Shown one piece after another: positions 9,464-51,621 of a stretch of 64,000 bases of DNA. This DNA comes from Escherichia phage muut. The position numbers and the translations under genes are program-made. How positions within the stretch are numbered: the first letter of the stretch is position 1; every line of letters begins with the position of its first letter. The notes under the pieces were generated by a model. It made no database searches and had not been told where the DNA came from. It was given only the letters and a program-made list of their open reading frames with translations. Location of the stretch: the sequence record NC_052657.1. One strand, written 5' to 3'.

Positions 9464-9518
9464 TTAACAATATTACTCTAACATATTATTAGCCCCTTTG
9501 TCAAGAGGCTTTTAATAT

Positions 9519-10671: not shown

Positions 10672-10761
10672 TGGAGGAAGATAATGGAGTCGAACCATCA
10701 CCGTATCACTACAATGGGCCAGGGTTCAAACCTGGTTGCGCACCGCTGCGCCCTACCTTCC
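10672..10761 (-). tRNA. tRNA-Ser (anticodon UGA)
   Basis: 90 nt type II; acceptor GGAAGGT/ATCTTCC with one G-U, anticodon arm CCAGG-TTTGAAC-CCTGG, T arm GATGG-TTCGACT-CCATT, CCA. Confidence 0.65.
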
Positions 10762-10824: not shown

Positions 10825-10906
10825 TGGCCGGGGTGACAGGATTCGAACCTGCATACTCCAATTACTCGGTTAACGCCTGATTAGAAGTCAGGTGAGATAC
10901 ACCCCG
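10825..10906 (-). tRNA. tRNA-Arg-like (anticodon UCU), non-canonical arm order
   Basis: Exact acceptor CGGGGTG/CACCCCG, CCA, T arm GCAGG-TTCGAAT-CCTGT; UCU hairpin sits right after U8-A9 and a D-loop-like segment follows it. Confidence 0.4.
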
Positions 10907-11171: not shown

Positions 11172-11286
11172 CATATAGGAGATGCATAGCACCTCCTTTT
11201 AAATGGTGGTTCCCCAGGGTTACAATCCCTGCCCTCGACACTTATGAGGTGTGCGCTCTCGTCAGTGAGCTATGGAACCTTGAATA

Positions 11287-14724: not shown

Positions 14725-14763
14725 TGTTTATCTCCTTAGTTAAGTTAGGACTTTATGTTCTCT

Positions 14764-14792
14764 ACTCTACATACAGATAGATCTAAAGTCAA
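14764..14792 (-). promoter_or_regulatory. sigma70-like promoter for prs-nadV operon
   Basis: On minus strand TTGACT-17-TAGAGT about 40 nt upstream of prs-like start. Confidence 0.45.
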
Positions 14793-14970
14793 TAGATATT
14801 TATTATTTAATTAATAATAAAATTAATAAAGAATCTATTGTTAGTATAGAGCATGTATGTTAGTATTATAAACATAACATAGTGCTATATGTAGACTACT
14901 CAGTTGTCTGTTAGATCATGTATCACAGGATTAGATAACACCCCCTCGCTGCGCTCGGCGTTTTTCGGGG

Positions 14971-14994
14971 GTTAGGGTAGCATACTTTTTTGCG
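14971..14994 (+). promoter_or_regulatory. conserved upstream element TTAGGGTAGCAT-N2-TTTTTT-N-CG (copy 1)
   Basis: Near-identical 24-nt motif recurs in opposite orientation at 55907-55930; both precede the first gene of an operon. Confidence 0.35.
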
Positions 14995-15133
14995 TTTGTC
15001 AACACCTTTTTAGATTATTTTTAAGTACAACCTAAACCTCCTAAAAACGATTGTAACGAGTTTTACTGTGAGGTAAGGTGATTGCATATCTTAAAGGCCA
15101 TTAGCTCGTTACAGAGCCGTATAGGAGGGAATA

Positions 15134-18171: not shown

Positions 18172-19104
18172 GTGGCTAAGTTCAATTGTGATGACCTGAT
18201 TGCAAAAGGTTTAGTGCATAAAAAAGAAGTTAAATCTGGAGAGTATGCTGGTCTTGCTGTACTTAAATACAAAAACAATGTATTCTGGGATAACTTGTGG
18301 AACGTTGACAAACGACTTTTAGATTGTCGTGGGTTGGTTGTTGACTCAGAAGACAATGTTGTTATTTGGCCTTTTACTAAAATCTTTAATCGTTTTGAAA
18401 ATGGTACAGATCTTCCAGCAGACGAAATTGTAGATGCTGTCCGTAAAGTAAACGGTTTTATGGCATCTGTAGGTGTGTACAAAGGGAAACTTGTTGTATC
18501 AACAACAGGGAGCCTAGAATCAGATTTCGCAATTATGGCAAAGAACCGTATTGTTTCCGAGTGTGACGACATAGAGTATTTCATTAAGTGGACAGAAAGT
18601 GCAAAAGCAACTTTTCTTTTTGAAATCTGTGATCCTTCTGATCCACATATTGTCGAAGAAGAACCAGGCGCATACTTAATTGGAGCAAGAATTCAAAATC
18701 TTGATGGGACAAGTTTCATGTTACCTGAAGGTGTTCTTGATGGGATTGCATCTGTTACAAAATTTAAACGTCCTGAAGTTTATCCGATGATTAAATTTTC
18801 AGATGTTGTTGAAATGTCTAAACATTGTAAACACGAAGGGTTTGTTGTTCGTGAAACAAACTATCCGTTTAACTTACTGTTAAAGATTAAGTCACCATAC
18901 TATCTTGCTAAAAAATTCCTTATGCGTGGTGGCAATAAGAAGTGGGATATGATTTGGGACAACCCAAACAATGCTAAACAAATTGTTGACGAAGAATATT
19001 ATACTTTGCTAGAATGGCTTCGAAACAACTTTACTAAGACTCAATGGGCTGCTTTAGATCCACAAGAGCGACGTAAAGAAATAGAAAACTTCTTTGGAGG
19101 CTAA
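18172..19104 (+). CDS. RNA ligase-like nucleotidyltransferase
   Basis: Motif I KVNGF, III FLFEICD, IV EGFVVRE, V LLKIKS; GTG start with AAAGGAG RBS. Confidence 0.55.
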   Translation: MAKFNCDDLIAKGLVHKKEVKSGEYAGLAVLKYKNNVFWDNLWNVDKRLLDCRGLVVDSEDNVVIWPFTKIFNRFENGTDLPADEIVDAVRKVNGFMASVGVYKGKLVVSTTGSLESDFAIMAKNRIVSECDDIEYFIKWTESAKATFLFEICDPSDPHIVEEEPGAYLIGARIQNLDGTSFMLPEGVLDGIASVTKFKRPEVYPMIKFSDVVEMSKHCKHEGFVVRETNYPFNLLLKIKSPYYLAKKFLMRGGNKKWDMIWDNPNNAKQIVDEEYYTLLEWLRNNFTKTQWAALDPQERRKEIENFFGG

Positions 19105-20264: not shown

Positions 20265-21366
20265 TCCTACATTGTATGGTAAAACTTCTACAGGTAAAAT
20301 TAAACAGTGGTCAGTCTATACCGAAGGTAGTGTTGTAACTGTTGCTCATGGTCAATTAGGTGGAAAGATTACTAGCAAATCTTATACAGCAGAACCTAAA
20401 AATATTGGTCGCTCAAATGAAACAACAGCAGAAGAACAAGCTGAAATAGAAGCTCTTGCCAAATGGACAAAACAACTTAAGAATGGGTATTATAAAACAA
20501 AAGAGGAAGCTGAAAACCATGTTCCTTCCACACCCATGAAATGTCAGGATTATAAAGATTATGCTGATCGTGTTTTGTTCCCAGGTTATGCACAATATAA
20601 ATTGAATGGTCTACGTTCAATGATTAACATGCAAGGTGAATGTTTATCTAAAGCTGGGGAAGTATATAAACTTCCACCTCACTGGAAAGAAATTCCAACC
20701 TTCATTAAAGAAGTAGTTGGTCATCCTCTTGATGGTGAAGTTTTTGCTGGTCTGGGTGTCCTTAGCCTTCAACAAATTAATAGTGCGTGGAAAAAGCACA
20801 ATGCTAACACACCGCTTCTTAAATATTATGTATACGATGTTCCTGTGGCATCTGTACCATTTGAGAAGAGGGTTCAAGTTTTGGCTGCTCTAAAAGAAGT
20901 TGTTGAAGATAAAGGTTTAGATGAACTTATTTGTGTAGTACATACAGAGTACATTGAAAACCAAGAACAGTTTGATGCTTTCTATGCAAAAGCTCTACAT
21001 GAGAAAGCGGAAGGTGTGGTGTATCGTAACGCACAAGGTGTTTACGAATTCGATAAACGTTCTTATGATGTTATTAAACGTAAACCACGTCAGACGCTTG
21101 AAGTTAAAGTGGTAAGTGCAAAGCGTGATAAAAATGGTGACGGGGTATTGACAGGCGAGATGGAAAATGGTAAAGTAGTCGAATTCCTGATGCGTAAGGA
21201 TTCAGATGAAACCATTAACTATCGTAAAGCAGAAAATGCCGAAATGTTAATTGGTAAATTTGTTGAGATTGAGTATGAAGAGTTTTCCGATGGTGGAATA
21301 CCTACGAAACCAACAGGTGTCCGTTTACGGGAAATGGTGGAGGGAACATGGGAGCCAAGAGAGTAG
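20251..21366 (+). CDS. ATP-dependent polynucleotide (DNA) ligase
   Basis: Start reset to ATG 20251 (GGAGG RBS); motifs KLNG, LDGEV, EGVVYRN, VIKRK and OB-like C-terminus. Confidence 0.5.
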   Translation: MKQTNPTLYGKTSTGKIKQWSVYTEGSVVTVAHGQLGGKITSKSYTAEPKNIGRSNETTAEEQAEIEALAKWTKQLKNGYYKTKEEAENHVPSTPMKCQDYKDYADRVLFPGYAQYKLNGLRSMINMQGECLSKAGEVYKLPPHWKEIPTFIKEVVGHPLDGEVFAGLGVLSLQQINSAWKKHNANTPLLKYYVYDVPVASVPFEKRVQVLAALKEVVEDKGLDELICVVHTEYIENQEQFDAFYAKALHEKAEGVVYRNAQGVYEFDKRSYDVIKRKPRQTLEVKVVSAKRDKNGDGVLTGEMENGKVVEFLMRKDSDETINYRKAENAEMLIGKFVEIEYEEFSDGGIPTKPTGVRLREMVEGTWEPRE

Positions 21367-21977
21367 ACTTTGTAGGTAAGAAATGCGGTTGTTATACTGT
21401 CTTAGAAGAGATTGAAAGGGACAAACATGGCAAAAGACGTTTTACTTGTTCTTGTGATTGTGGTAATATTTGCACGGTAACTATGGAAACACTTAGGAAG
21501 AATAGAAGTTCTTATTGTTCCAAGTGTAGACCGAAAACAACACAAACAGGAGCATACAAATCGTGGGAAGCTATGTTAGGGAGATGCTATAACAAAAACA
21601 ATACTCACTTTGAATACTACGGTGGTCGTGGTATTAAGGTTTGTGATGCTTGGAGAAATTCATTCTCTGCATTCTTTGAGGATATGGGAGATAGACCTAA
21701 AGGCTTATCTCTTGACAGAATAGACTCGGAAAAAGATTACAGTAAAGAAAATTGTCGCTGGGCTACAAGGTCTGTCCAGTCATACAATACACGAAAACAG
21801 AAAAATAACACTTCTGGTAAAACAGGTGTTGTGTGGAGCGAGAAAGAAAAAAGATGGATTGCTCGTATATCCTATCAAGGAAAAGATATCCGTCTTGGAG
21901 CATTTATTGATATTGAAGATGCTATATCAGCAAGACAGGAAGCTGAAGTATTGTATTTTGGCAAGATTAAAACATAA
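21348..21977 (+). CDS. HNH-family homing endonuclease-like protein
   Basis: Cys cluster (KCGCY...CSCDCG) and segment YGGRGIKVCDAW...SLDRID...NCRWAT seen in phage HNH annotations; overlaps ligase end. Confidence 0.45.
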   Translation: MGAKRVDFVGKKCGCYTVLEEIERDKHGKRRFTCSCDCGNICTVTMETLRKNRSSYCSKCRPKTTQTGAYKSWEAMLGRCYNKNNTHFEYYGGRGIKVCDAWRNSFSAFFEDMGDRPKGLSLDRIDSEKDYSKENCRWATRSVQSYNTRKQKNNTSGKTGVVWSEKEKRWIARISYQGKDIRLGAFIDIEDAISARQEAEVLYFGKIKT

Positions 21978-22912: not shown

Positions 22913-22919
22913 GAAATAA

Positions 22920-22939
22920 AGCCCCTTCGGGGGCTTATT
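22920..22939 (+). terminator. putative terminator hairpin (UUCG loop)
   Basis: AGCCCC-ttcg-GGGGCT then TATTGG; T-run weak. Confidence 0.35.
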
Positions 22940-23237: not shown

Positions 23238-24122
23238 ATGTTTGCTAAAAATTTCAAATCTTGCGTAACCCTGATTTCTGGTGATGGTCTGTCTATTTCC
23301 GCACTGAACACAGTAACAGACAAACCGCTGGATTTTGTTGTGGCACAGGGGCAACAAGCACATACCATTGGTCTTGTTCGTTTTGAAGATGATGGTTCCT
23401 ATGTAAAAGTGTTCTCTGGTTTAGAGGTTATTAAAGTAGGGCAATCTGTTAAGAAAGTTAACAAGAAAAAAGTTAAACGCATTCTTAATGAAAAACTCCA
23501 AGAGATGGAACAAGAGTTTATTGCTGCAAATCCTACTAAAGAATTCTTCTTGGATAAAGAAAGTAAAAAAGCAATTGAGGCTGATATCGTGTTTTCTCTG
23601 CTCCCAGAAACAGAGGCAGATGATTTCTATAACTATGTTGTTGTAGACACTGAGAACAGTATTACCTACGTTCTTAATGGTACTAAGAAAATTAGTGAAG
23701 ATATTGCTGTGTTTCTTCGTGAGGTGTTGGGTACTTTCCCAGTTCTGCCGTTTAGTGTACACGAAGAAGCCATTATTAAAGGTTTTGATACCATCTTAGA
23801 AGAACATGAGGCTGAACGACTGACCCTTGGTAATTATATTAAACTTGAAGATTCTGAAGGTGTGGTTGTATGGAGTAAAGAATCCCTTTATGAATCTCGT
23901 GCAGTAGAACTTATGGAAGATGGTAAGCACGTTGTTGCCATTGGCCTGGAATATGACGGTTTCGTTAACTTTATTGTTGATAAAGAATTTAAGTTGAGTG
24001 GTATTAAATTCCCTAAATACTTTAACGATGAAGAAGGATCTTTTGAAGCATCTGTCCTTCTGTGCTTTAATGAAATCCGTGGTATTATGCAAGACCTTAT
24101 TAAGTCAACTATTCAAAAATAA
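23238..24122 (+). CDS. hypothetical protein (294 aa)
   Basis: Track ORF; no motif recognised. Confidence 0.45.
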   Translation: MFAKNFKSCVTLISGDGLSISALNTVTDKPLDFVVAQGQQAHTIGLVRFEDDGSYVKVFSGLEVIKVGQSVKKVNKKKVKRILNEKLQEMEQEFIAANPTKEFFLDKESKKAIEADIVFSLLPETEADDFYNYVVVDTENSITYVLNGTKKISEDIAVFLREVLGTFPVLPFSVHEEAIIKGFDTILEEHEAERLTLGNYIKLEDSEGVVVWSKESLYESRAVELMEDGKHVVAIGLEYDGFVNFIVDKEFKLSGIKFPKYFNDEEGSFEASVLLCFNEIRGIMQDLIKSTIQK

Positions 24123-24125
24123 TAC

Positions 24126-24155
24126 TTGACTTACTAATTTAATATGTGTTAATAT
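24126..24155 (+). promoter_or_regulatory. sigma70-like promoter (TTGACT-18-TAATAT) followed by 5-prime-UTR hairpin
   Basis: -35 TTGACT at 24126; 7-bp hairpin 24156-24178; then AAGGAGA RBS and ATG 24197. Confidence 0.5.
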
Positions 24156-24196
24156 GCCTACCTACTTAGTTAGGTGGGCTTTTAAGGAGACACACC

Positions 24197-24409
24197 ATGA
24201 AAAAACTTCTTGTCGGTTTACTTTTAGTAATCAGTTCTTATTCTTATGCTGGTCAAATAACTTTAATTAATTCTGGAGAACAAGTTTCTGGAAGTACAAA
24301 ATACTGTTTTTACTCTAACGGTATGTACGACAAGGTTATAGAGGTTTCTGCAAGTCGTCAGTGTCCCTACACACGAACATTCTCAACAGAGAGTTCAGAT
24401 GATGAATAG
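24197..24409 (+). CDS. small secreted protein (70 aa)
   Basis: N-terminal signal peptide MKKLLVGLLLVISSYSYA. Confidence 0.4.
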   Translation: MKKLLVGLLLVISSYSYAGQITLINSGEQVSGSTKYCFYSNGMYDKVIEVSASRQCPYTRTFSTESSDDE

Positions 24410-24417
24410 GAGGTAAT

Positions 24418-25536
24418 ATTAGCGGTTACATTTTAATCCAACCGGAAGACCTGCACAAATATGTTGACGAGAACACAATTCTTGCAATAGACTACGATCA
24501 AGTGGCGTTCCAAGCATCTTCAGCTTTAGAGCAAAGAAAAATCCACGCTGTACACAAGGCTTCCGGTAATGTAAAAGAGTTTGAAACAAGAACAGATTTT
24601 TGGGGTAAATCTTCAAAAAATATTGGAGGATGGTTAGGAGCACTTAACGCGCAACGCGAAGCTGCTGGTAAGAAGTTGTTCTCCAAGGAAGATTTTGAAA
24701 TAAAAGATGTTCAAATAGTCCCAGAGAATATTTCTTTTACGTTTCAAGCTGCAAAGACAAAAATAACCCAGATGGTGGATCACCTAAAACTTCAAAAGTA
24801 TTGCGGTGTCATCGGGGTAGGAAAAACCTTCCGGCATTCTTTCAAAATGCCAAAAGAATATAAATCAGAACGATCAGATTTAAGACCAATCCAATTATCA
24901 GATACTAAAGATTATCTAGTTGAAAAACATAACGGTGACGTTGTTACTGGTATTGAGGCAGATGATGCTTTAGAAATCTATGGATATGCAGGGTATAAAG
25001 CCTACAAGGAAACTGGTAAGTTTTCTCATATTGTAGCATCTATCGACAAAGATAGCTTACACACACCAAGTTTACTCTTTAACTTTTATAAAGAGGATGG
25101 TGTTTATAAAAATCCTTGTGTTATTCTGATTGATGAATCTATCGGTGATATCTGGATCGTAGAAAAAGGTAAGAAAAAAGAAGTTAAGGGTTGGGGTAGT
25201 TACTGGTTAGCTTATCAAATGCTAATGGGCGATAAGACAGATAGTATTCGACCTTACCAAGATTTCGATGTTAAGTTTGGAGATATTACTTGCTTTAATC
25301 TTATTTCCAAATGTAAAACACAGGCTGAACTTTTTCAGACAGTTAAAGATCAGTATTATGAATGGTTCCCAGATGGCGTTAAATTTACTTCTTGGGATGG
25401 TGAAGAAGTAGAAATGACAACTGATGAATGGATAGAGACAATTTTTCAGTTGGTATATATGAAACGTTGGGCGAATGATGAAACAACTTTTGAAAGTATG
25501 CTACAAGCATATATTTCAGAGCAGGAGGAACATTGA
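24418..25536 (+). CDS. rnh: RNase H / 5-prime-3-prime flap exonuclease (T4 rnh-like); non-AUG start likely
   Basis: Motifs ILAIDYDQVAF, EADDALEIYG, SIDKDS, MGDKTDSIRP; conserved N-terminus lies upstream of first in-frame ATG/GTG. Confidence 0.65.
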   Translation: MSGYILIQPEDLHKYVDENTILAIDYDQVAFQASSALEQRKIHAVHKASGNVKEFETRTDFWGKSSKNIGGWLGALNAQREAAGKKLFSKEDFEIKDVQIVPENISFTFQAAKTKITQMVDHLKLQKYCGVIGVGKTFRHSFKMPKEYKSERSDLRPIQLSDTKDYLVEKHNGDVVTGIEADDALEIYGYAGYKAYKETGKFSHIVASIDKDSLHTPSLLFNFYKEDGVYKNPCVILIDESIGDIWIVEKGKKKEVKGWGSYWLAYQMLMGDKTDSIRPYQDFDVKFGDITCFNLISKCKTQAELFQTVKDQYYEWFPDGVKFTSWDGEEVEMTTDEWIETIFQLVYMKRWANDETTFESMLQAYISEQEEH

Positions 25537-26495: not shown

Positions 26496-26500
26496 TAAAA

Positions 26501-26524
26501 AGGGGCGAAAGCCCCTTTATTTTT
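26501..26524 (+). terminator. rho-independent terminator (GNRA loop)
   Basis: AGGGGC-gaaa-GCCCCT followed by TTATTTTT. Confidence 0.6.
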
Positions 26525-27113: not shown

Positions 27114-27678
27114 AGAACCTAAAGTTATTTGGGGAGATGGAACACCTTGGAAAACTCAAGCAGCCTTTTATACATATTTAAGGGGTTGCTTAAGGAAAGC
27201 ATGGGTGAGACACCCGAATAAGATAAAAAAGATCCAATCTGTACGATTTAAAGCCGATAGGTTGGATAAAGATGGCAATGTAGTTTTAGATAAGAAAACA
27301 GGCAAACCGAAACAGGTTTGGAATTGTCAATGTGAATTGTGTGGACATACAGGAGGTATGAAAGACTTTCAAGTAGACCATATTAATGCAGCAGGTACAT
27401 TAACCTGTTATGAAGATATCCCAAGTTTTGTTTTACGCCTATTATATGTAACAGAAGACGATCTGCGTGTAGTTTGTAAGCAGTGTAACGCTATCCTAGC
27501 TTATGCTGACAAGCACGATATGACATTCAGGGAAGCAAAAGCGGAGAAGGAAGCGATAGCTTTATGCCAGTCTAAAAAGGATAAAAATTGGCTAACGAAG
27601 CGCGGAATTTCACCAGAAAGTACAGTAAGTAAGCGAAGAAAACAAATAGTAAAAATTCTTCTTGACGAAGAGAAATAA
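27103..27678 (+). CDS. HNH endonuclease-like protein
   Basis: CQCELCGH...FQVDHINAAG...CKQCN fits HNH His-Me finger with zinc ligands. Confidence 0.5.
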   Translation: MENKEPKVIWGDGTPWKTQAAFYTYLRGCLRKAWVRHPNKIKKIQSVRFKADRLDKDGNVVLDKKTGKPKQVWNCQCELCGHTGGMKDFQVDHINAAGTLTCYEDIPSFVLRLLYVTEDDLRVVCKQCNAILAYADKHDMTFREAKAEKEAIALCQSKKDKNWLTKRGISPESTVSKRRKQIVKILLDEEK

Positions 27679-27723
27679 TAAAGTATTATCGCTCCCACAA
27701 ATGGGAGCGTTAGAGGAGAAAAT

Positions 27724-28287
27724 ATGGCTAAACTTTATTTCCGATATAGTCCAATGAACAGTGGTAAAAGCACACATCTTCTACAAACAGCTTGGAACTA
27801 TAAAGAAAGAAATATGAAAGTTCTTCTTTTAACTTCAGCTTTAGATACCAGATCTGGTTGTGCTATTGCTTCTAGGATAGGTATTAAAGAGGAAGCAAAA
27901 CCAGTTAAAACAAAAGAAGATATGCTGGAAATTTATACACAACTTAAAGAAAATCCAGTAGATGCAGTATTTGTGGACGAATCACAATTCCTAACTAAAG
28001 ATATGGTTGACATTCTTGGAGATGTGGTAGATAATTACGATATTCCTGTATTCTGTTATGGACTTAAAACAGATTTTGCTACAGAATTGTTTGAAGGTTC
28101 TGAACGGTTATTAGCCATAGCAGATTCAATTACAGAATTGAAAAGCATTTGTAAATGTGGAAGAAAAGCTATTTTCAATGCTAGACTTATCGACTCTAAA
28201 GAACAGATTGTTATTGGGGGAGAAGACATTTACGAAACAATGTGTAGAAAATGTTATAACAGGAGAAATAATGCGTCTAGTATGTGA
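27724..28287 (+). CDS. tdk: thymidine kinase
   Basis: Near-collinear with E. coli Tdk: P-loop MNSGKST, DESQFL, C-terminal zinc motif CKCGRKA...CRKCY. Confidence 0.9.
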   Translation: MAKLYFRYSPMNSGKSTHLLQTAWNYKERNMKVLLLTSALDTRSGCAIASRIGIKEEAKPVKTKEDMLEIYTQLKENPVDAVFVDESQFLTKDMVDILGDVVDNYDIPVFCYGLKTDFATELFEGSERLLAIADSITELKSICKCGRKAIFNARLIDSKEQIVIGGEDIYETMCRKCYNRRNNASSM

Positions 28288-29842: not shown

Positions 29843-29859
29843 TCAACTTAAAATTATAG

Positions 29860-29888
29860 TTGACTTTTAATTGAGATTCGTGTAGTAT
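29860..29888 (+). promoter_or_regulatory. sigma70-like promoter (TTGACT-17-TAGTAT) followed by 8-bp hairpin
   Basis: Hairpin AGGAGAGC-tat-GCTCTCCT at 29900-29918, then RBS and ATG 29940. Confidence 0.5.
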
Positions 29889-29939
29889 AGGCTAACGTTA
29901 GGAGAGCTATGCTCTCCTTAAAAGAGAGAAGGAGAATTT

Positions 29940-30350
29940 ATGTCACTAATTAATACAACCATTTGGGCGACCGTAAGTATGTCTACCATTAAGGCTACAC
30001 CGATCTGGAAAGAAATGGCTAAAAAGCACGGAGGAAAAATTCCTCACGAGTATCATAACACTACATTGCGAGCAGCATTAGTAATGCTTGGTATGTCTAC
30101 CGATGGACATTATACAGTAGAACGTGGTGTTAATATTCGTAGTAACAACAATCGACGTGTGGTGTTTGCAAATACTACATTGTATACTTTCCCAGTTCGA
30201 CAAGACTATAAATATAAGCGAATCTATCAAGGTGTAGATATTTTGCACTTTGGAGAAGAAGATTTTACAGGTTGGGGTAGCTCTCATATCAAAATGGAAG
30301 ACTTCGGAAATGAACATGATCCATCACGAGATGATGATTCTGAATTCTAA
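29940..30350 (+). CDS. hypothetical protein (136 aa)
   Basis: Track ORF. Confidence 0.45.
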   Translation: MSLINTTIWATVSMSTIKATPIWKEMAKKHGGKIPHEYHNTTLRAALVMLGMSTDGHYTVERGVNIRSNNNRRVVFANTTLYTFPVRQDYKYKRIYQGVDILHFGEEDFTGWGSSHIKMEDFGNEHDPSRDDDSEF

Positions 30351-32891: not shown

Positions 32892-32912
32892 AGGGGGCTT
32901 TGTCCCCCTTTC
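32892..32912 (+). terminator. putative terminator/attenuator hairpin between nrdA and next gene
   Basis: AGGGGG-ctttgt-CCCCCT followed by TTTCTT. Confidence 0.4.
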
Positions 32913-39082: not shown

Positions 39083-39583
39083 ATGGCTAAAGTAGTTGAT
39101 GTGTTTGATATGTTACGTTTTGATGAAGGACTAAAGCTAACTGTATATCCTGATACCGAAGGGTATTGGACAGTTGGTATTGGACACCTTCTGACAAAAC
39201 TCAAAGATAAAGCAGAAGCTATACGTATTCTTGATAACTTAGTAGGTAGAAAAACCAATGGGGTTATTACTGAAGCGGAAGCTAGAAGAATCTTTGAGAG
39301 TGACGTAAAGAAAGCGATACAACAAATCCATTCAAGTGCCATATTATCTCCTATTTACGATAAAGTAAGTCCTAATCGTAAAATGGCTATTATTAATATG
39401 GTATTTCAAATGGGATTGAAAGGTGCAGAATCTTTCAAAAATAGCTTGACTTTAGTGAGTAATTCATATTATACTCAAGCCTCTATAAATTTACGTAAAA
39501 GTAAATGGTATCGCCAAACGCCTAATCGCGCAGAGCGTGTAATTCAGGTACTTAAAACTGGAACATTAGACGCTTATAACTAA
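39083..39583 (+). CDS. e: T4-type lysozyme (endolysin, GH24)
   Basis: Collinear with T4 lysozyme: DEGLKLTVYPDTEGYWTVGIGHLL with catalytic E/D/T. Confidence 0.9.
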   Translation: MAKVVDVFDMLRFDEGLKLTVYPDTEGYWTVGIGHLLTKLKDKAEAIRILDNLVGRKTNGVITEAEARRIFESDVKKAIQQIHSSAILSPIYDKVSPNRKMAIINMVFQMGLKGAESFKNSLTLVSNSYYTQASINLRKSKWYRQTPNRAERVIQVLKTGTLDAYN

Positions 39584-39587
39584 ACAA

Positions 39588-39608
39588 AGGGGCGAAAGCC
39601 CCTTTTAT
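39588..39608 (+). terminator. rho-independent terminator (GNRA loop)
   Basis: AGGGGC-gaaa-GCCCCT followed by TTTTAT; same hairpin as at 26501 and 51598. Confidence 0.6.
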
Positions 39609-39621
39609 AAGGAGTGCAAAC

Positions 39622-40374
39622 ATGGGAAATAAAACCGCAAAGGCTCGTCGTCAATCAGCAGCCAATGATGACAAACGTGCCAGTCGTTATGCGGCTAAAG
39701 CAGTAGGAAATGATGATTACCGTCTTGATGAATTTACCCCTGTTGGGAATCAAGAAGCTATTGTAAGAAGCATGGTTTGGAATGATTTAACCATTGTTAA
39801 TGCCCCAGCAGGAACAGGAAAAACGACAACAGCACTATGGAAAGCATTGCAAATGCTTAAAGCTGGTGATTTCAGAAAGTTGATTTTCCTTAAAAACCCG
39901 ACAGAAGTAGGTGATGATCAAATTGGTTTCTTATCTGGAGATAAGACTGATAAACTAGCAGCACATTACGAATCAACTAAAAGAATTTTCCAACAGTTTA
40001 TGACTGCAAATAAATTGGAAAACGATATTGCAAGTGGCAAAATTGAACTTAATATTCCAAACTATGCACTAGGTGCTACGTGGGATAACAGCATTATTCT
40101 TATTGATGAAGTTCAACTTATGTCACCAAATACAGTAAAACTTCTCCTTGAGCGAGCAGGTCTTAATACACGTATTGTCATTATGGGTGATGTTAATCAA
40201 ACATATGCAATTAAACGAAGAGCTAATGGGTTAGGTGATTTGTTAGATCGTGTTGTTCCTATTAACGAAGAAGGAGAAAGGGAAGCTATTGTAGATTTTA
40301 TTGGTTATGTTGAAATGACAACTGCTGATAACCAACGTTCCCGTTTGTCTCAGTTCATCACGGAAGTATATTAA
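39622..40374 (+). CDS. phoH: PhoH-like ATPase
   Basis: Walker A NAPAGTGKTT and Walker B-like IILIDEVQ. Confidence 0.8.
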   Translation: MGNKTAKARRQSAANDDKRASRYAAKAVGNDDYRLDEFTPVGNQEAIVRSMVWNDLTIVNAPAGTGKTTTALWKALQMLKAGDFRKLIFLKNPTEVGDDQIGFLSGDKTDKLAAHYESTKRIFQQFMTANKLENDIASGKIELNIPNYALGATWDNSIILIDEVQLMSPNTVKLLLERAGLNTRIVIMGDVNQTYAIKRRANGLGDLLDRVVPINEEGEREAIVDFIGYVEMTTADNQRSRLSQFITEVY

Positions 40375-40902: not shown

Positions 40903-41555
40903 TGACAACAATTATTGCAACACGTAACAAAATTTTGTCTGACGGTAAGGTAACAGTAGGTAGTCGTGTAGACACTTTAAACTTCAAGAAAGTGCGTAAA
41001 ATTGGGGACTACCTTGTTGGTGGTGCAGGACGTCTGTCTTCTATCCTGACTTTCTTTTCTTGGTTTGAACAAAACTTACAATGCCAGGCAGCACAAGAGA
41101 CAATCCCAGGTTTGGTGATCCAGTCAGATCCCGATAAAGAAGATGAAGAGTTTGTGGCATTGGTTGTTCATCCAGACGGTAAAATTTATATGCACGAGGG
41201 TAATAATCCAACGCGAGCATATCCTTTAACTGAAGATTATTATGCTGTTGGTAGTGGGGCAGATTTTGCTTTAGCAGCTTTAGATGCAGGGGCAACTCCA
41301 GAAGAAGCGATGGAAGTTGCAAAACTGCGAGATGCTTTTTCCGGCGGTGAAACTTTTATCGAAGAGATCGAAGAACAACTGGAGTTAACAGCGGAAGATA
41401 TTCTGAACTTCAGCAAGGAGCAACTAATTAGTATGCTGTTGACTGGTGATCCTGATAGCGATGAAGCTGAAAGTATTTTAGCAGAAATGAAAGAATCACA
41501 AGAAAAAGTATTGACAGTCTCTGAAAAACTTGATAAAGTGTCCTCTGATAATTAA
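40902..41555 (+). CDS. HslV-like Ntn-hydrolase peptidase with acidic C-terminal extension
   Basis: N-terminus MTTIIATR (Thr2 nucleophile), KKVRKIGDYLVGGAGR and YAVGSGADFALAALDAG parallel E. coli HslV. Confidence 0.5.
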   Translation: MTTIIATRNKILSDGKVTVGSRVDTLNFKKVRKIGDYLVGGAGRLSSILTFFSWFEQNLQCQAAQETIPGLVIQSDPDKEDEEFVALVVHPDGKIYMHEGNNPTRAYPLTEDYYAVGSGADFALAALDAGATPEEAMEVAKLRDAFSGGETFIEEIEEQLELTAEDILNFSKEQLISMLLTGDPDSDEAESILAEMKESQEKVLTVSEKLDKVSSDN

Positions 41556-41564
41556 TCTAGTATA

Positions 41565-41585
41565 AACCCCCTCAAGGGGGTTATT
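41565..41585 (+). terminator. putative terminator hairpin
   Basis: AACCCCC-tcaa-GGGGGTT followed by ATTAGG; T-run weak. Confidence 0.4.
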
Positions 41586-41595
41586 AGGAGGAGAT

Positions 41596-42024
41596 ATGTT
41601 ACCAGTACCTGTAACCTTTGTAGAAAAAGCCTACTACTCTTTAGAACAAAACTGTAAAAGAGCTAAAAATTTTATTGAAAGTTTAGCAGAACAGCGTTAC
41701 ACTGTATCTAAAAAGGGATGGTTCAGAACTTCACAATATTCAGTCAACCCTTTCGGAGAAGTTCGTGTGTTGTACGGCAACACAGAAAATATCTTAGAAA
41801 GAATGTTAGAACTAGATAGGATCTCCTCCTGTGATTATCAACTGTTGAAATTTTACGATGTGTCAGAAAACATTAAAAACTTTCTTGACGATTTATGTAA
41901 ACGAAAAACAGAAGAAGATACAATACCAGTATCTATGGAAGAATTAACGTTCTTAAGAGATATTATGGTTTTTGAAGAAAACCCTGAAATCACAAAAGAG
42001 GAGATTTTAAGTAGTGGCAAATAA
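41596..42024 (+). CDS. hypothetical protein (142 aa)
   Basis: Track ORF. Confidence 0.45.
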   Translation: MLPVPVTFVEKAYYSLEQNCKRAKNFIESLAEQRYTVSKKGWFRTSQYSVNPFGEVRVLYGNTENILERMLELDRISSCDYQLLKFYDVSENIKNFLDDLCKRKTEEDTIPVSMEELTFLRDIMVFEENPEITKEEILSSGK

Positions 42025-42973: not shown

Positions 42974-43002
42974 TTGACTTTAACATTGAGGTAGTGCATA
43001 CT
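42974..43002 (+). promoter_or_regulatory. sigma70-like promoter (TTGACT-17-CATACT) followed by hairpin
   Basis: Hairpin TCCTGT-aacaga-ACAGGA at 43003-43020, then GGAGGG RBS and ATG 43028. Confidence 0.5.
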
Positions 43003-43027
43003 TCCTGTAACAGAACAGGAGGGTATT

Positions 43028-43690
43028 ATGAAGTTTGTACTGTATCATCGACTTTCTAAGAAGAAACAACAAGGCAACCAGTATGGTATAGAATCACAGG
43101 AAGCAGATATCCAACGCTTCCTGGATTCACAAGAAAATTATACTATTGTAGGTAGCTTTGCAGAGTTTTATTCTGGTAAAGGCGATTGGAAGCAACGTAG
43201 AGAGCTTGTAAAAGCTGTTAATCTTTGCAAAGAAACAGGTGCTACACTTGTTGTTGCTAAGGTTGACCGTCTTGGACGTAACACAGCTTCTGTTGCAACC
43301 TTGTTAGAGATGATTAATGTACGGATAGCCACTATGCCCTCCGCTGAAAATATGATAATAAATATTTTAGCAGTTCTGGCAGAAGAAGAGGCTCGTGCAA
43401 TATCTGATCGTGTTAAGAAGAGCCTTAAGGTAGCAAAAGCGAAGGGAACGCTTCTTGGTGCAGCAAACCCTAAATACAAAAGAACAGATTATACGAAAAC
43501 GGAAGAAGCAAAACGCTCAAAAGAGTTTGCACTTTCTTTAAAAGATTCTTTAGTTGCATACAGAGCTTGTAAAACGCCATATATGACGATTGCAAAGCAT
43601 CTGAATGAATCAGGAAAGAGAACTATTCGTGGGAGTTTGTTCGATGCCAAAGCGGTACAACGTCTTTGTGCAAAATTGAATATTAAATAA
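43028..43690 (+). CDS. serine recombinase (resolvase/invertase family)
   Basis: N-terminal YHRLSKKKQ (catalytic Ser), VVAKVDRLGRN, C-terminal HTH-like region. Confidence 0.7.
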   Translation: MKFVLYHRLSKKKQQGNQYGIESQEADIQRFLDSQENYTIVGSFAEFYSGKGDWKQRRELVKAVNLCKETGATLVVAKVDRLGRNTASVATLLEMINVRIATMPSAENMIINILAVLAEEEARAISDRVKKSLKVAKAKGTLLGAANPKYKRTDYTKTEEAKRSKEFALSLKDSLVAYRACKTPYMTIAKHLNESGKRTIRGSLFDAKAVQRLCAKLNIK

Positions 43691-47235: not shown

Positions 47236-47239
47236 TATA

Positions 47240-47263
47240 AACCCGCTTCAGCGGGTTTTTTGT
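47240..47263 (+). terminator. rho-independent terminator
   Basis: AACCCGC-ttca-GCGGGTT followed by TTTTTT. Confidence 0.7.
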
Positions 47264-47291
47264 TGACAACACCAGTTTTTTCGAATAAACT
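47263..47291 (+). promoter_or_regulatory. sigma70-like promoter (TTGACA-17-TAAACT)
   Basis: Immediately after terminator; precedes RBS and ATG 47321. Confidence 0.45.
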
Positions 47292-48848: not shown

Positions 48849-49458
48849 GACTCAAAAAGTTGCATATCAAGTAGATCGTGAAGACGGTGAAGGTAGTGTT
48901 GTAGTTTTTGATACACATGGTCTTGCAGCAAGACGCAAAGGTGCTTGTCTACTGGACATTGGTGGTGAAGATGAATACTGCACTGTACGTAGAGTAAAAG
49001 AATTTGATCAATATGCTGAAAAAGGTTTTGTACCTGCAAAAGCACTATTAGAAGCTGGATGGTGGATACCTAGTGCACATGATTATGATATTTTGGAATC
49101 AGATACAGACGATTTTAACAGTGAAGATTTTGTTTTTTCTCTGGATGAAAAATGCGTTTGGAAAGATTGGGATGAAATGGAACGCCATGCTTATTTTATA
49201 AACGAAGCATTAGATCGTAAAACTTGGTTTGAGAATACAGTTAAAGCAGCGTATCCTCAATTTACTTTTACAGAATTTTGGGGTGGCCCACACCATATTA
49301 CTCATGTGGCATACTTCGAGTTCCCAGGCTCACGCTATAAAGGTACTGTCTATTGGGATTGGGACGAGGACAAAGAACCTTCTGCTCAAGACTTCCGTTG
49401 CTATGTTTGTCAAGGTGATCAAGAAGCCCTTGACAAGTACCTTAAAAGTCTGGTATAA
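48847..49458 (+). CDS. hypothetical protein (203 aa)
   Basis: Track ORF. Confidence 0.45.
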   Translation: MTQKVAYQVDREDGEGSVVVFDTHGLAARRKGACLLDIGGEDEYCTVRRVKEFDQYAEKGFVPAKALLEAGWWIPSAHDYDILESDTDDFNSEDFVFSLDEKCVWKDWDEMERHAYFINEALDRKTWFENTVKAAYPQFTFTEFWGGPHHITHVAYFEFPGSRYKGTVYWDWDEDKEPSAQDFRCYVCQGDQEALDKYLKSLV

Positions 49459-49459
49459 T
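49430..49459 (+). promoter_or_regulatory. consensus sigma70 promoter (TTGACA-18-TATAAT) overlapping stop of upstream gene
   Basis: Perfect hexamers; followed by hairpin 49477-49495, GGAGGA RBS and ATG 49513. Confidence 0.55.
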
Positions 49460-49476
49460 CCGTAAAACTTAACCAA

Positions 49477-49499
49477 AGCCCCAAGCAGGGGCTTTATTT
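49477..49499 (+). terminator. hairpin with T-run (terminator and/or 5-prime-UTR stem-loop)
   Basis: AAGCCCC-aagca-GGGGCTT followed by TATTTG. Confidence 0.45.
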
Positions 49500-49512
49500 G
49501 TCTGGAGGATAT

Positions 49513-50046
49513 ATGGGTTTTGATGACATGTTATTATATGAGGAGGCTTGTGTGAAAGAAGCTATGGCTTTACCAGTTTTATCTATTGATATTACAACAG
49601 TAGACACTTTTTCAGATTGTGAAACGTGTGGATCGTATTCGTCTATTGTACATGAAGTTAGTGGGGATTTAGGCACTTACGAAGATGGAGATTATGCAAG
49701 TTGTTTAGGTGATAATCGAGATGGTGAAGTGGCGAATGTTGCAAACTGGATTGCTTCTAAGTTAAAAGAAAGAAATCGTCCGTTCCCTAATCTTCTTACA
49801 CCAGAAGCTATGCTTAAAGCTGAACAAGAGATGTATGATTATGGTTATAAAGTAGATTATGACTATAATGATCCTAAATATAAAAAATTGAGTGACAAGT
49901 ATTGGGAACTAGCTAATGCTTATGATAAATACTACTCTACAGAAAACATTGTTAAATTGTTTTTAGATTTTGGAGTAGAAATTAATTGGGATTTCGAAGA
50001 GGAAGAGCGTTACGACGCATCTTCTTGGGAGGACGAGGGTGAATGA
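49513..50046 (+). CDS. hypothetical acidic protein
   Basis: Start reset to ATG 49513 (GGAGGA RBS). Confidence 0.4.
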   Translation: MGFDDMLLYEEACVKEAMALPVLSIDITTVDTFSDCETCGSYSSIVHEVSGDLGTYEDGDYASCLGDNRDGEVANVANWIASKLKERNRPFPNLLTPEAMLKAEQEMYDYGYKVDYDYNDPKYKKLSDKYWELANAYDKYYSTENIVKLFLDFGVEINWDFEEEERYDASSWEDEGE

Positions 50047-51588: not shown

Positions 51589-51597
51589 CTTGACCAA

Positions 51598-51621
51598 GGG
51601 GCGAAAGCCCCTTTTCTTATA
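51598..51621 (+). terminator. rho-independent terminator (GNRA loop)
   Basis: AGGGGC-gaaa-GCCCCT followed by TTTTCTTAT. Confidence 0.55.

Follow-up and report, generated by a model that had tools for sequence, protein, structure and literature searches.

The closest described counterparts of the sequences discussed here are the promoter-early stem-loops (PeSLs) of the T4-type phages RB49/phi1, PST and nt-1 (Arbiol et al. 2010, PMC2839356; Comeau et al. 2014, PMC4122927). In a PeSL a sigma70-like promoter is combined with a stem-loop that takes one of five positions relative to it, including one just downstream of the -10 hexamer, and lacZ fusions have shown both promoter and terminator activity (PMC2839356). 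In the T4 genes e, soc, 49 and I-TevI, a hairpin hides the ribosome-binding site (RBS) and a promoter lies in the DNA encoding the 5' strand of that hairpin (reviewed in PMC3014915), while the ompA and papA leaders carry 5'-terminal stabilising stem-loops (work of Emory, Bouvet and Belasco, as listed among the references of PMC3997798). Here we examine 64,000 nucleotides of Escherichia phage muut (NC_052657.1; the whole stretch is called the window below), in which four plus-strand gene starts, at 24126 (S1), 29860 (S2), 42974 (S3) and 49430 (S4), had been singled out in an earlier note for a near-consensus sigma70 promoter followed by a stable hairpin, an RBS and a start codon. All the elements described there are present at their positions, and the pattern is broader than four gene starts, since sites at 27662 and 41511 and a longer-range pair (39446/39586) had been missed. 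We think it probable, though well short of certain, that the sites are composite junction cassettes of promoter and stem-loop, analogous to the PeSLs of T4-type phages. The layout is real and conserved, yet it is a mix of ordinary promoter-type and terminator-type elements, known in kind from T4-like phages, and no single new device. Two other arrangements can usefully be compared with it, namely the classical terminator with a re-initiation promoter behind it, and lambda PR'-tR', where a promoter-proximal terminator is relieved by Q antitermination.

The window is a segment of a Justusliebigvirus genome (phi92-like, Stephanstirmvirinae), and the 8 kb around the finding share 99% identity with the Escherichia phages ZYD, inny, alia and EmilieFrey (Justusliebigvirus, phi92 group). 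A minus-strand block with 15 tRNAs is followed by a 37-kb co-directional cluster on the plus strand (about 15.1-51.9 kb), whose genes serve nucleotide and DNA metabolism, and then by a second minus-strand block of small open reading frames (ORFs). All four sites lie inside the plus-strand cluster, which encodes RNA ligase, DNA ligase, RdgC, exonucleases, thymidine kinase, ThyX, NrdAB, dTDP-sugar enzymes, endolysin, PhoH and methylases, and which is likely to be expressed in the early or middle period. The genes behind S1 to S4 encode, respectively, phi92 gp086 (a secreted protein of 70 aa), gp077 (function not assigned; the first gene of a gp077-gp076-nrdA-nrdB array), a serine recombinase and a phrog_9509 protein. 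No shared function was found among the downstream genes (two unknown proteins, a small secreted protein, a recombinase and, at 27662, thymidine kinase). An Rfam scan of the whole window returned tRNAs only, with no match at the four sites, and the annotations of phi92 and EmilieFrey mark no promoters or terminators.

The promoters are of unequal quality. That of S4 matches the consensus hexamers at 12 of 12 positions and has a TG extension, so that "near-consensus" describes it well, whereas S1, S2 and S3 match at 9 of 12 each, and 9/12 matches are not enriched over shuffled sequence (63 against 68, and 70 against 61). In a weight matrix with spacer and TG terms the promoters score 16.5 (S4), 12.0 (S2), 11.8 (S1) and 11.2 bits (S3), all above the 99.9th percentile of the window (9.6 bits). 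We also aligned relatives that are about 70% identical, namely phAPEC8_ev052, the Klebsiella phages phi1_175008 and FKP3, and PsgM04F. In these four, TTGAC is invariant at S1, S2 and S4 and TGn-TAnnAT or TAnnAT is retained while the spacers drift; the promoters at 39446 and 47263 are conserved at this distance as well. Thus, the weight-matrix scores, together with the conservation of the -35 and -10 hexamers at S1, S2 and S4, make the promoters of S1-S3 credible.

The association of these promoters with hairpins is not random. Five promoter-then-hairpin adjacencies (six with S3) were observed in the plus-strand cluster, against 0.43 expected if the 26 plus-strand promoter hits are placed at random (P ~2e-4). 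Gene-proximal promoters were taken to be those scoring 11 bits or more with a start codon no further than 60 nt away. Of the seven in the plus-strand cluster, six have a hairpin of -9.9 kcal/mol or lower between the -10 hexamer and the ATG, beginning 0, 0, -2, 11, 15 and 25 nt from the -10; in the minus-strand clusters this is true of 0 of 11. Strong plus-strand hairpins in the cluster are themselves concentrated between genes, 12 of 26 falling within about 0.85 kb of intergenic DNA (a roughly 36-fold enrichment), and nearly all of the intergenic gaps of at least 36 nt have a GC-rich stem-loop directly 5' of the Shine-Dalgarno (SD) sequence. Since such hairpins also occur at the promoter-less junctions 22919, 26499, 32892 and 51596, they belong to the junctions and not to the promoters. 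A typical cassette occupies 40-100 nt and consists of an upstream stop codon, a sigma70-type promoter (TTGAC[A/T], a spacer of 16-18 nt and often TGn-TAnnAT), a GC-rich stem-loop, a short tail, and the SD with the ATG. Beyond the promoter hexamers the cassettes have no extended sequence in common.

Instead of the one recurrent architecture proposed earlier, three geometries were found. In E. coli, transcription as a general rule starts 7 +/- 2 nt after the -10 hexamer, at a pyrimidine-purine step, and by this rule the predicted start sites fall at different places relative to the hairpins. In type A (S1, 27662 and S3) the 5' arm of the hairpin begins 0, 0 and -2 nt, respectively, from the end of the -10 hexamer, and the predicted start is at the end of that arm or at the first base of the loop, so that the promoter's own RNA should be unable to form the hairpin. 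When RNA is folded from the predicted starts, only 0.0 (S3), -0.8 (27662) and -6.2 kcal/mol (S1, through other pairings) are obtained, compared with -14 to -18 kcal/mol for read-through RNA. In type B (S4, 39446/39586 and perhaps 41511/41565) the promoter lies upstream of a complete hairpin, which is terminator-like at S4 and 39586; the spacing at 39446/39586 and 41511/41565 is longer than at S4. Type C is S2, where the gp077-nrdAB leader has, 3-5 nt behind its predicted 5' end, a stem-loop that does not resemble a terminator. The suggestion that each hairpin lies within the 5' untranslated region (UTR) of its promoter's RNA therefore holds for S2 and S4; at S1, S3 and 27662, where the 5' arm adjoins the -10, the predicted start sites would leave the intact hairpin outside the transcript, a predicted outcome of the kind that the earlier note itself had taken to speak against its reading.

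With start sites, termination efficiency and effects on translation all predicted from the sequence, the cassettes might work as follows. The stem-loop would act chiefly on RNA arriving from upstream, which it would attenuate or terminate, leaving a protective 3' hairpin, and the promoter, squeezed in just upstream and often within the last codons of the preceding gene, would re-initiate transcription for the next gene or genes. RNA from a type A promoter would start within the hairpin and so escape its effect, the output of a type B promoter would be attenuated by its own downstream terminator, and the type C element would be a 5'-proximal stabiliser or insulator. Since the genes downstream need to be expressed, the type B terminators would have to be leaky or regulated.

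Likeness to PeSLs is considerable. In both cases a sigma70-like promoter is combined with a stable stem-loop, often of a G-run and a C-run, in variable relative positions (the activity being predicted from sequence in the window), and in both the cassette is bounded by an upstream stop codon and a downstream SD and start codon. One PeSL subclass places the stem-loop just past the -10, before the start site; in the window, stem-loops lie over the -35 (9504), over the -10 (2942) or adjoining the -10 (S1, 27662, S3). Both can be read as a terminator or attenuator of upstream RNA plus re-initiation, and both may be associated with variable genes, for the window on a few anecdotal cases. There are also differences. 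The phages concerned here are Stephanstirmvirinae, unrelated to the T4-like phages; PeSLs exist as many copies sharing about 100 bp, whereas the cassettes of the window do not form a repeat family; and PeSLs are found in ORFan-rich hyperplastic regions, whereas the window cassettes are in a conserved metabolic cluster and mostly precede conserved genes. Moreover, the stem-loops of S2 and S4 are wholly downstream of the predicted start, and several of the window stem-loops have no U-tract. The classical terminator plus re-initiation promoter has the same components and presumably serves the same purpose, and that order does occur in the window (47239/47263 and 8128/8086), whereas the flagged sites have it reversed or overlapping, with the promoter first and the hairpin between the -10 and the SD.

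Hairpins were rated as terminators with an approximate, sequence-based discriminant in the style of d'Aubenton-Carafa. A U-rich tract directly follows the GC-rich stem at S4 (TTTATTTGT), marginally at S1 (TTTT), and at neither S2 nor S3. In phage ASO2A the hairpins orthologous to those of S1, S2 and S4 are marked by independent annotators as rho-independent terminators (TransTermHP and/or WebGeSTer; in the case of S2, WebGeSTer only). Shuffle z-scores are weak for the S2 and S4 hairpins (-1.5), because G-runs and C-runs refold in shuffled sequences, and the background frequency in the genome was used instead.

The S1 promoter (24126-24155, plus strand) begins 4 nt past the stop codon of RdgC and consists of TTGACT (24126-31), an 18-nt spacer and the extended -10 TGt-TAATAT (24150-55). 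It is directly adjoined by the hairpin GCCTACCTA-CTTAGT-TAGGTGGGC (24156-24179, plus strand; 9 bp, about -13.5 to -14.7 kcal/mol, shuffle z -2.5), which is followed by its TTTT and reaches a marginal terminator discriminant of +4. The predicted start (24162-24164) is in the 5' arm, A24164 being the last base of that arm. Next come the SD AAGGAG (24184-89) and the ATG (24197) of the 70-aa signal-peptide protein, gp086 in phi92 (SD to ATG, 24184-24199, plus strand). In five other sequences (four diverged lineages and phi92) the -35 is invariant and TGn-TAnnAT is retained, and the hairpin directly adjoins the -10 in six of six sequences. Changes in the stem among relatives mostly preserve pairing on one side (G.U to A-U or G-C), with one T.T mismatch in the two Klebsiella lineages.

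The same arrangement is found in front of thymidine kinase. Here the promoter (27662-27689, plus strand; TTGACG, 16-nt spacer, TATTAT, 11.8 bits) overlaps the stop codon of the upstream HNH-type gene and is adjoined at its -10 by the 8-bp hairpin CGCTCCCA-CAAA-TGGGAGCG (27690-27709, plus strand; z -5.2), which has no U-tract and is not terminator-like (discriminant -4). Transcription is predicted to start at A27697, on the final base of the hairpin's 5' arm, and the thymidine kinase ATG is at 27724. In Klebsiella phages that do not have thymidine kinase, the same junction contains TTGCAT-16-TAATAT, adjoined by the covarying stem AAGCCCC/GGGGCTT.

At S3, in front of the serine recombinase gene, the promoter (42974-43002, plus strand; TTGACT 42974-79, 17-nt spacer, CATACT 42997-43002) overlaps the hairpin CTTCCTGT-AACAGA-ACAGGAGG (43001-43022, plus strand; 6-8 bp, about -9.9 to -11.2 kcal/mol, z -3.1), whose discriminant of -32 is not that of a terminator. 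Its 3' arm, ACAGGAGG, holds the whole SD AGGAGG (43017-22), ahead of the ATG at 43028, and S3 is the only one of the four sites with the SD inside the hairpin, S1, S2 and S4 leaving it uncovered. With the predicted start at A43009, the first loop base, only read-through RNA would hide the SD; such RNA would be translated poorly and promoter-derived RNA well. The earlier idea that the hairpins modulate translation is thus reasonable for S3, on read-through RNA and not on the RNA of the promoter itself. This resembles T4 e and I-TevI, as does the nature of the gene, a non-essential DNA enzyme like I-TevI. In contrast to those systems, S3 has a shorter stem (8 bp, -10 to -11 kcal/mol), which is not conserved in the Klebsiella relatives, the other three sites do not cover the SD, and the internal promoter is of the sigma70 type and not a T4 late promoter, so that no temporal switch can be inferred. 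The hairpin of the window is not conserved in relatives; Klebsiella relatives that have the recombinase show TTGACA-17-CATACT with a different 10-bp hairpin, ATGAAGAGTA/TACTCTTCAT, which overlaps the -10 and stops just 5' of the predicted start. The recombinase, here encoded by a virulent myovirus, matches Pfam Resolvase (E 8e-22). Both it (a serine recombinase/invertase, 43028-43690, plus strand) and thymidine kinase (27724-28287, plus strand) are present in some and absent from others of the otherwise collinear relatives.

The S4 promoter (49430-49459, plus strand; TTGACA 49430-35, 18-nt spacer, TGg-TATAAT 49454-59) lies within the 3' end of the upstream gene, its -10 overlapping the stop codon of that gene, and its -35 stays TTGACA in relatives despite substitutions (L to F, K to N) in the codons that it overlaps. 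The hairpin AAAGCCCC-AAGCA-GGGGCTTT (49475-49495, plus strand; 8 bp, -12.5 kcal/mol), followed by ATTTGT, begins 15 nt after the -10 and about 9 nt past the predicted start (49465-7), and the SD GGAGG (49504-08) and the ATG (49513) come next. Its discriminant of +17 is comparable to those of the undisputed terminators at 47239 (+26), 26499 (+31) and 51596 (+30), and by this approximate measure it is predicted to be a canonical intrinsic terminator. Hairpin and U-tract are kept in all five lineages, with one G.U variant. As in lambda PR'-tR', a strong, constitutive-looking promoter has an intrinsic terminator close behind it, upstream of the genes to be served; the distance between promoter and terminator is much shorter at S4, and neither a Q-like protein nor a Q-binding element or defined pause signal is known here, none having been searched for. 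The surroundings of S4 (49130-49515) are also a mosaic boundary, as the Phapecoctavirus phages ECML-183-2 and ASO2A are 93% identical over the gene upstream of S4 and other members about 76%.

A second promoter facing a terminator is found within the endolysin gene (39446-39475, plus strand; TTGACT, 18-nt spacer, TATACT), scoring 12.8-14.1 bits in four of four relatives. It lies 110 nt upstream of the terminator-like hairpin AAAGGGGC-GAAA-GCCCCTTT with its U-tract (39586-39605, plus strand; discriminant +24), which RNA from this promoter must cross before reaching phoH. This GAAA-tetraloop hairpin is present in three near-identical copies, at 26499-26518, 39586-39605 and 51596-51613, at different junctions and with partly similar flanks. 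At 41511-41582 (plus strand) a promoter of 15.5 bits (TTGACA, 17-nt spacer, TGa-TAAAGT, 41511-39) is followed 25 nt further on by the hairpin AACCCCC-TCAA-GGGGGTT (41565-82), an SD and an ATG at 41596. One more candidate promoter, at 40345 (TTGTCT-16-TATATT), was dropped, as its -10 is not conserved and its -35 is accounted for by conserved codons.

At S2 the promoter (29860-29888, plus strand; TTGACT 29860-65, 17-nt spacer, TAGTAT 29883-88) is followed by the stem-loop AGGAGAGC-TAT-GCTCTCCT (29900-29918, plus strand; 8 bp, -11.9 kcal/mol), which ends 21 nt 5' of the ATG at 29940, the SD AAGGAG being at 29929-34. The stem lies 11 nt downstream of the -10 and 3-5 nt past the predicted start, A29894/5, an invariant AA. 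We compared ten lineages, including Citrobacter Tr1, phiWec188, Klebsiella 05F01 and KP13-16, and Salmonella PVP-SE1 (Vequintavirinae). All ten have TTGAC[AT], a spacer of 17-18 nt and TAnnnT, followed by a perfect stem of 6-9 bp, with energies from -8.3 to -14.1 kcal/mol; by comparison, S2-like hairpins occur in 3% of random 45-nt windows. The stems comprise at least seven different complementary sequences (AGGAGAGC, GGGAGGA, GGGGGA, GGGGAGG, GAGAGG, AGGGACT and CGGGGAG). They were tabulated lineage by lineage, as MAFFT plus RNAalifold on these leaders mis-registered the 3' arms and under-reported the covariation. In eight of the ten lineages, 19-21 nt separate the end of the stem from the ATG. 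The distance from the -10 to the stem is 10-12 nt in eight lineages, with KP13-16 (1 nt) and PVP-SE1 (14 nt) as the exceptions. The deep conservation of this structure, at a constant distance from the ATG, points to a role in the leader of the transcript that contains the nrd genes. With a discriminant of -11 and no U-tract the element cannot be accounted for as a terminator, and a 5'-proximal stabiliser or insulator is the most economical candidate, and a plausible one. Its likeness to the ompA and papA leaders lies in a long mRNA leader with a stem-loop a few nucleotides behind the predicted 5' end and no terminator tail, while the spacing to the -10, 1 to 14 nt in distant relatives, and a start site that is predicted set it apart. 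A 5' end with 3-5 unpaired nucleotides, as predicted at S2, is at the limit for protection. The -35 of S2 is overlapped by an inverted repeat, TCAACT-N9-AGTTGA (29843-29863, plus strand), and some relatives have other inverted repeats there. An NrdR-box operator was considered for S2 and rejected, as no such palindrome was seen by eye.

Several observations weigh against the cassettes being PeSL-like units of attenuation and re-initiation. A repeat family linking them was sought and not found, the repeats detected being limited to a terminator hairpin in three identical copies and a duplicated promoter on the minus strand. The hairpins of S2, S3 and 27662, having no U-tract and a discriminant below 0, give no support to the term "terminator" at these sites, and it looks wasteful for RNA from a type B promoter to run into a full terminator, for which leakiness is not a full explanation. 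The minus-strand internal promoters do without hairpins (0/11), so insulation is no general need in this genome. The promoter at 41511 could not be aligned in the relatives, although its hairpin is conserved there. Finally, the predicted start sites depend on a general spacing rule (7-9 nt downstream of the -10), and the literature on Justusliebigvirus, Phapecoctavirus and Stephanstirmvirinae yielded nothing usable in the way of mapped start sites, 3' ends or transcriptomes, the sigma70-like promoters and terminators of the rV5 paper being predicted only.

One may also consider that every hairpin belongs to the 5' UTR of the RNA transcribed from its neighbouring promoter, where it would stabilise against 5'-end-dependent decay, serve as a processing site or tune translation, a reading close to that of the earlier note. 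We regard this as unlikely for the set as a whole, although S2 has the fitting geometry and a stem kept by covariation in ten lineages at a nearly constant 19-21 nt from the ATG, and although the hairpins of S4 and 41511 also lie within the predicted transcript. Furthermore, 5'-terminal stem-loops are known stabilisers in E. coli, according to references listed in PMC3997798. However, the RNAs of the S1, S3 and 27662 promoters should be without the hairpin, the same kind of hairpin occurs at junctions that have no promoter, and the S4 hairpin, 9 nt from the predicted 5' end, has a full U-tract. Even at S2, the short distance in KP13-16 (1 nt) and the long one in PVP-SE1 (14 nt) imply that a fixed 5'-terminal position is not conserved. 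As for processing, typical RNase III sites need stems longer than the 8-9 bp found here, and an RNase III-type site is rejected on that account. Stabilisation of the transcript is a reasonable proposal for S2; S4 looks like a standard terminator, and the hairpins of S1 and S3, half of those flagged, are predicted to lie outside their own transcripts.

Two further readings, to which we would give a similarly low probability, concern single sites. S2 may be an undescribed conserved cis-regulatory RNA in the leader of the gp077-nrdAB array of Stephanstirmvirinae and Vequintavirinae phages, a 5' stabiliser or protein-binding operator and not a by-product of junction packing, and the S4-type combination of a consensus promoter and a full terminator may be a regulated promoter-proximal terminator or the source of a phage small RNA of 30-40 nt.

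Another possibility is that the cassettes are chiefly DNA-level recombination linkers for gene shuffling, the evolutionary role that has been proposed for PeSLs. Thymidine kinase and the serine recombinase, the genes present or absent among relatives, are each right behind a cassette, and the nucleotide homology of ASO2A stops inside the S4 hairpin (at about 49480), the downstream proteins being only 37.5% identical. On the other hand, the cassettes share no extended sequence beyond the hexamers, the indel genes have a cassette on one side only, and these are three anecdotal examples with no statistical test or control, which leaves this explanation quite improbable in our view.

It may also be that S4 and 39446/39586 are regulated promoter-proximal terminators, giving a short terminated RNA until a phage factor permits read-through, or that the RNA of 30-40 nt is itself a small regulatory RNA. 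At S4 the extended -10 promoter with its 12/12 match has a canonical terminator 15 nt behind it, elements and spacing being conserved in all five lineages, and many terminator-like hairpins interrupt what is one long co-directional cluster. Yet leaky termination accounts for the same data, the single-stranded 5' part of the putative short RNA would be just about 9 nt and is only partly conserved, and no antiterminator gene, binding element or pause element is known here, although none was searched for; we consider such regulation distinctly improbable. That the whole pattern is a coincidence of ordinary terminators or junction hairpins with chance 9/12 matches in AT-rich DNA at S1-S3 is extremely improbable, for although such matches are no commoner than in shuffled sequence and neither the 41511 promoter nor the 40345 candidate is conserved, the hexamers of S1, S2 and S4 persist in four relatives while their spacers diverge, that of S2 persists into Vequintavirinae, S4 matches at 12/12 plus TG, and adjacency by chance has the low P value given above.

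If the reading as composite junction cassettes is correct, it provides a first transcription-unit map of a likely early/middle cluster in phi92-like phages, which are therapeutic candidates, marking where host RNA polymerase would re-initiate and where read-through would be damped. Composite promoter/stem-loop cassettes would then extend from T4-type phages to an unrelated myovirus lineage, suggesting convergent compaction of regulatory signals. It does not overturn current understanding, but it raises the cases of a recombinase whose translation may depend on the promoter from which its RNA comes, a deeply conserved leader hairpin before ribonucleotide reductase genes, and a consensus promoter firing into a terminator.

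Elsewhere in the window, the classical order of terminator then promoter is seen at 47239/47263, 16026/16041 and 8128/8086. In the first of these (47239-47291, plus strand) the terminator AAACCCGC-TTCA-GCGGGTTT with TTTTTT, conserved in relatives, precedes the promoter at 47263-91 (TTGACA, 17-nt spacer, TAAACT), which has no hairpin after it. Promoter-less junctions carry their hairpins right before the SD, as at 22919-22936 (plus strand), and likewise at 26499-26518, 32892-32909 and 51596-51613. On the minus strand, the hairpin AGCCTC-TTGACAAA-GGGGCT (9491-9510) carries in its loop the -35 TTGACA of promoter 9504, upstream of tRNA-Gly, and an 18-bp hairpin (2892-2933) extends over promoter 2942 from its spacer through the -10 into the early transcribed region. 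High-scoring sigma70-type promoters also occur inside genes on the plus strand, at 21148-21176 (DNA ligase) and 18986-19015 (RNA ligase) besides the one in the endolysin gene, and their retention in relatives that are about 70% identical suggests that these are real internal promoters.

Some minor observations concern other parts of the window. The divergent minus-strand and plus-strand clusters are separated by 407 nt of non-coding, partly AT-rich sequence (14725-15133), which contains a terminator-like hairpin (14947-14960) and divergent promoter-like sites. Behind the DNA ligase gene, an ORF of 209 aa (21348-21977, plus strand) lacks a Pfam match and is not present in EmilieFrey, a close relative with an annotated genome; it may be a mobile insertion. 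The tRNA callers differ, an Rfam tRNA at 10828-10906 (minus strand) having no ARAGORN counterpart, and the ARAGORN tRNA-Ser (10672-10761, minus strand) and tRNA-Met (11204-11279, minus strand) falling under the Rfam gathering score. Several "Campylobacter phage" records (MG065645, MG065656, MG065639 and MG065650), which match window positions 23800-24500 and other queries, are either 97.5-99.4% identical to this E. coli phage or members of the Phapecoctavirus group, and the host label of those records looks doubtful.

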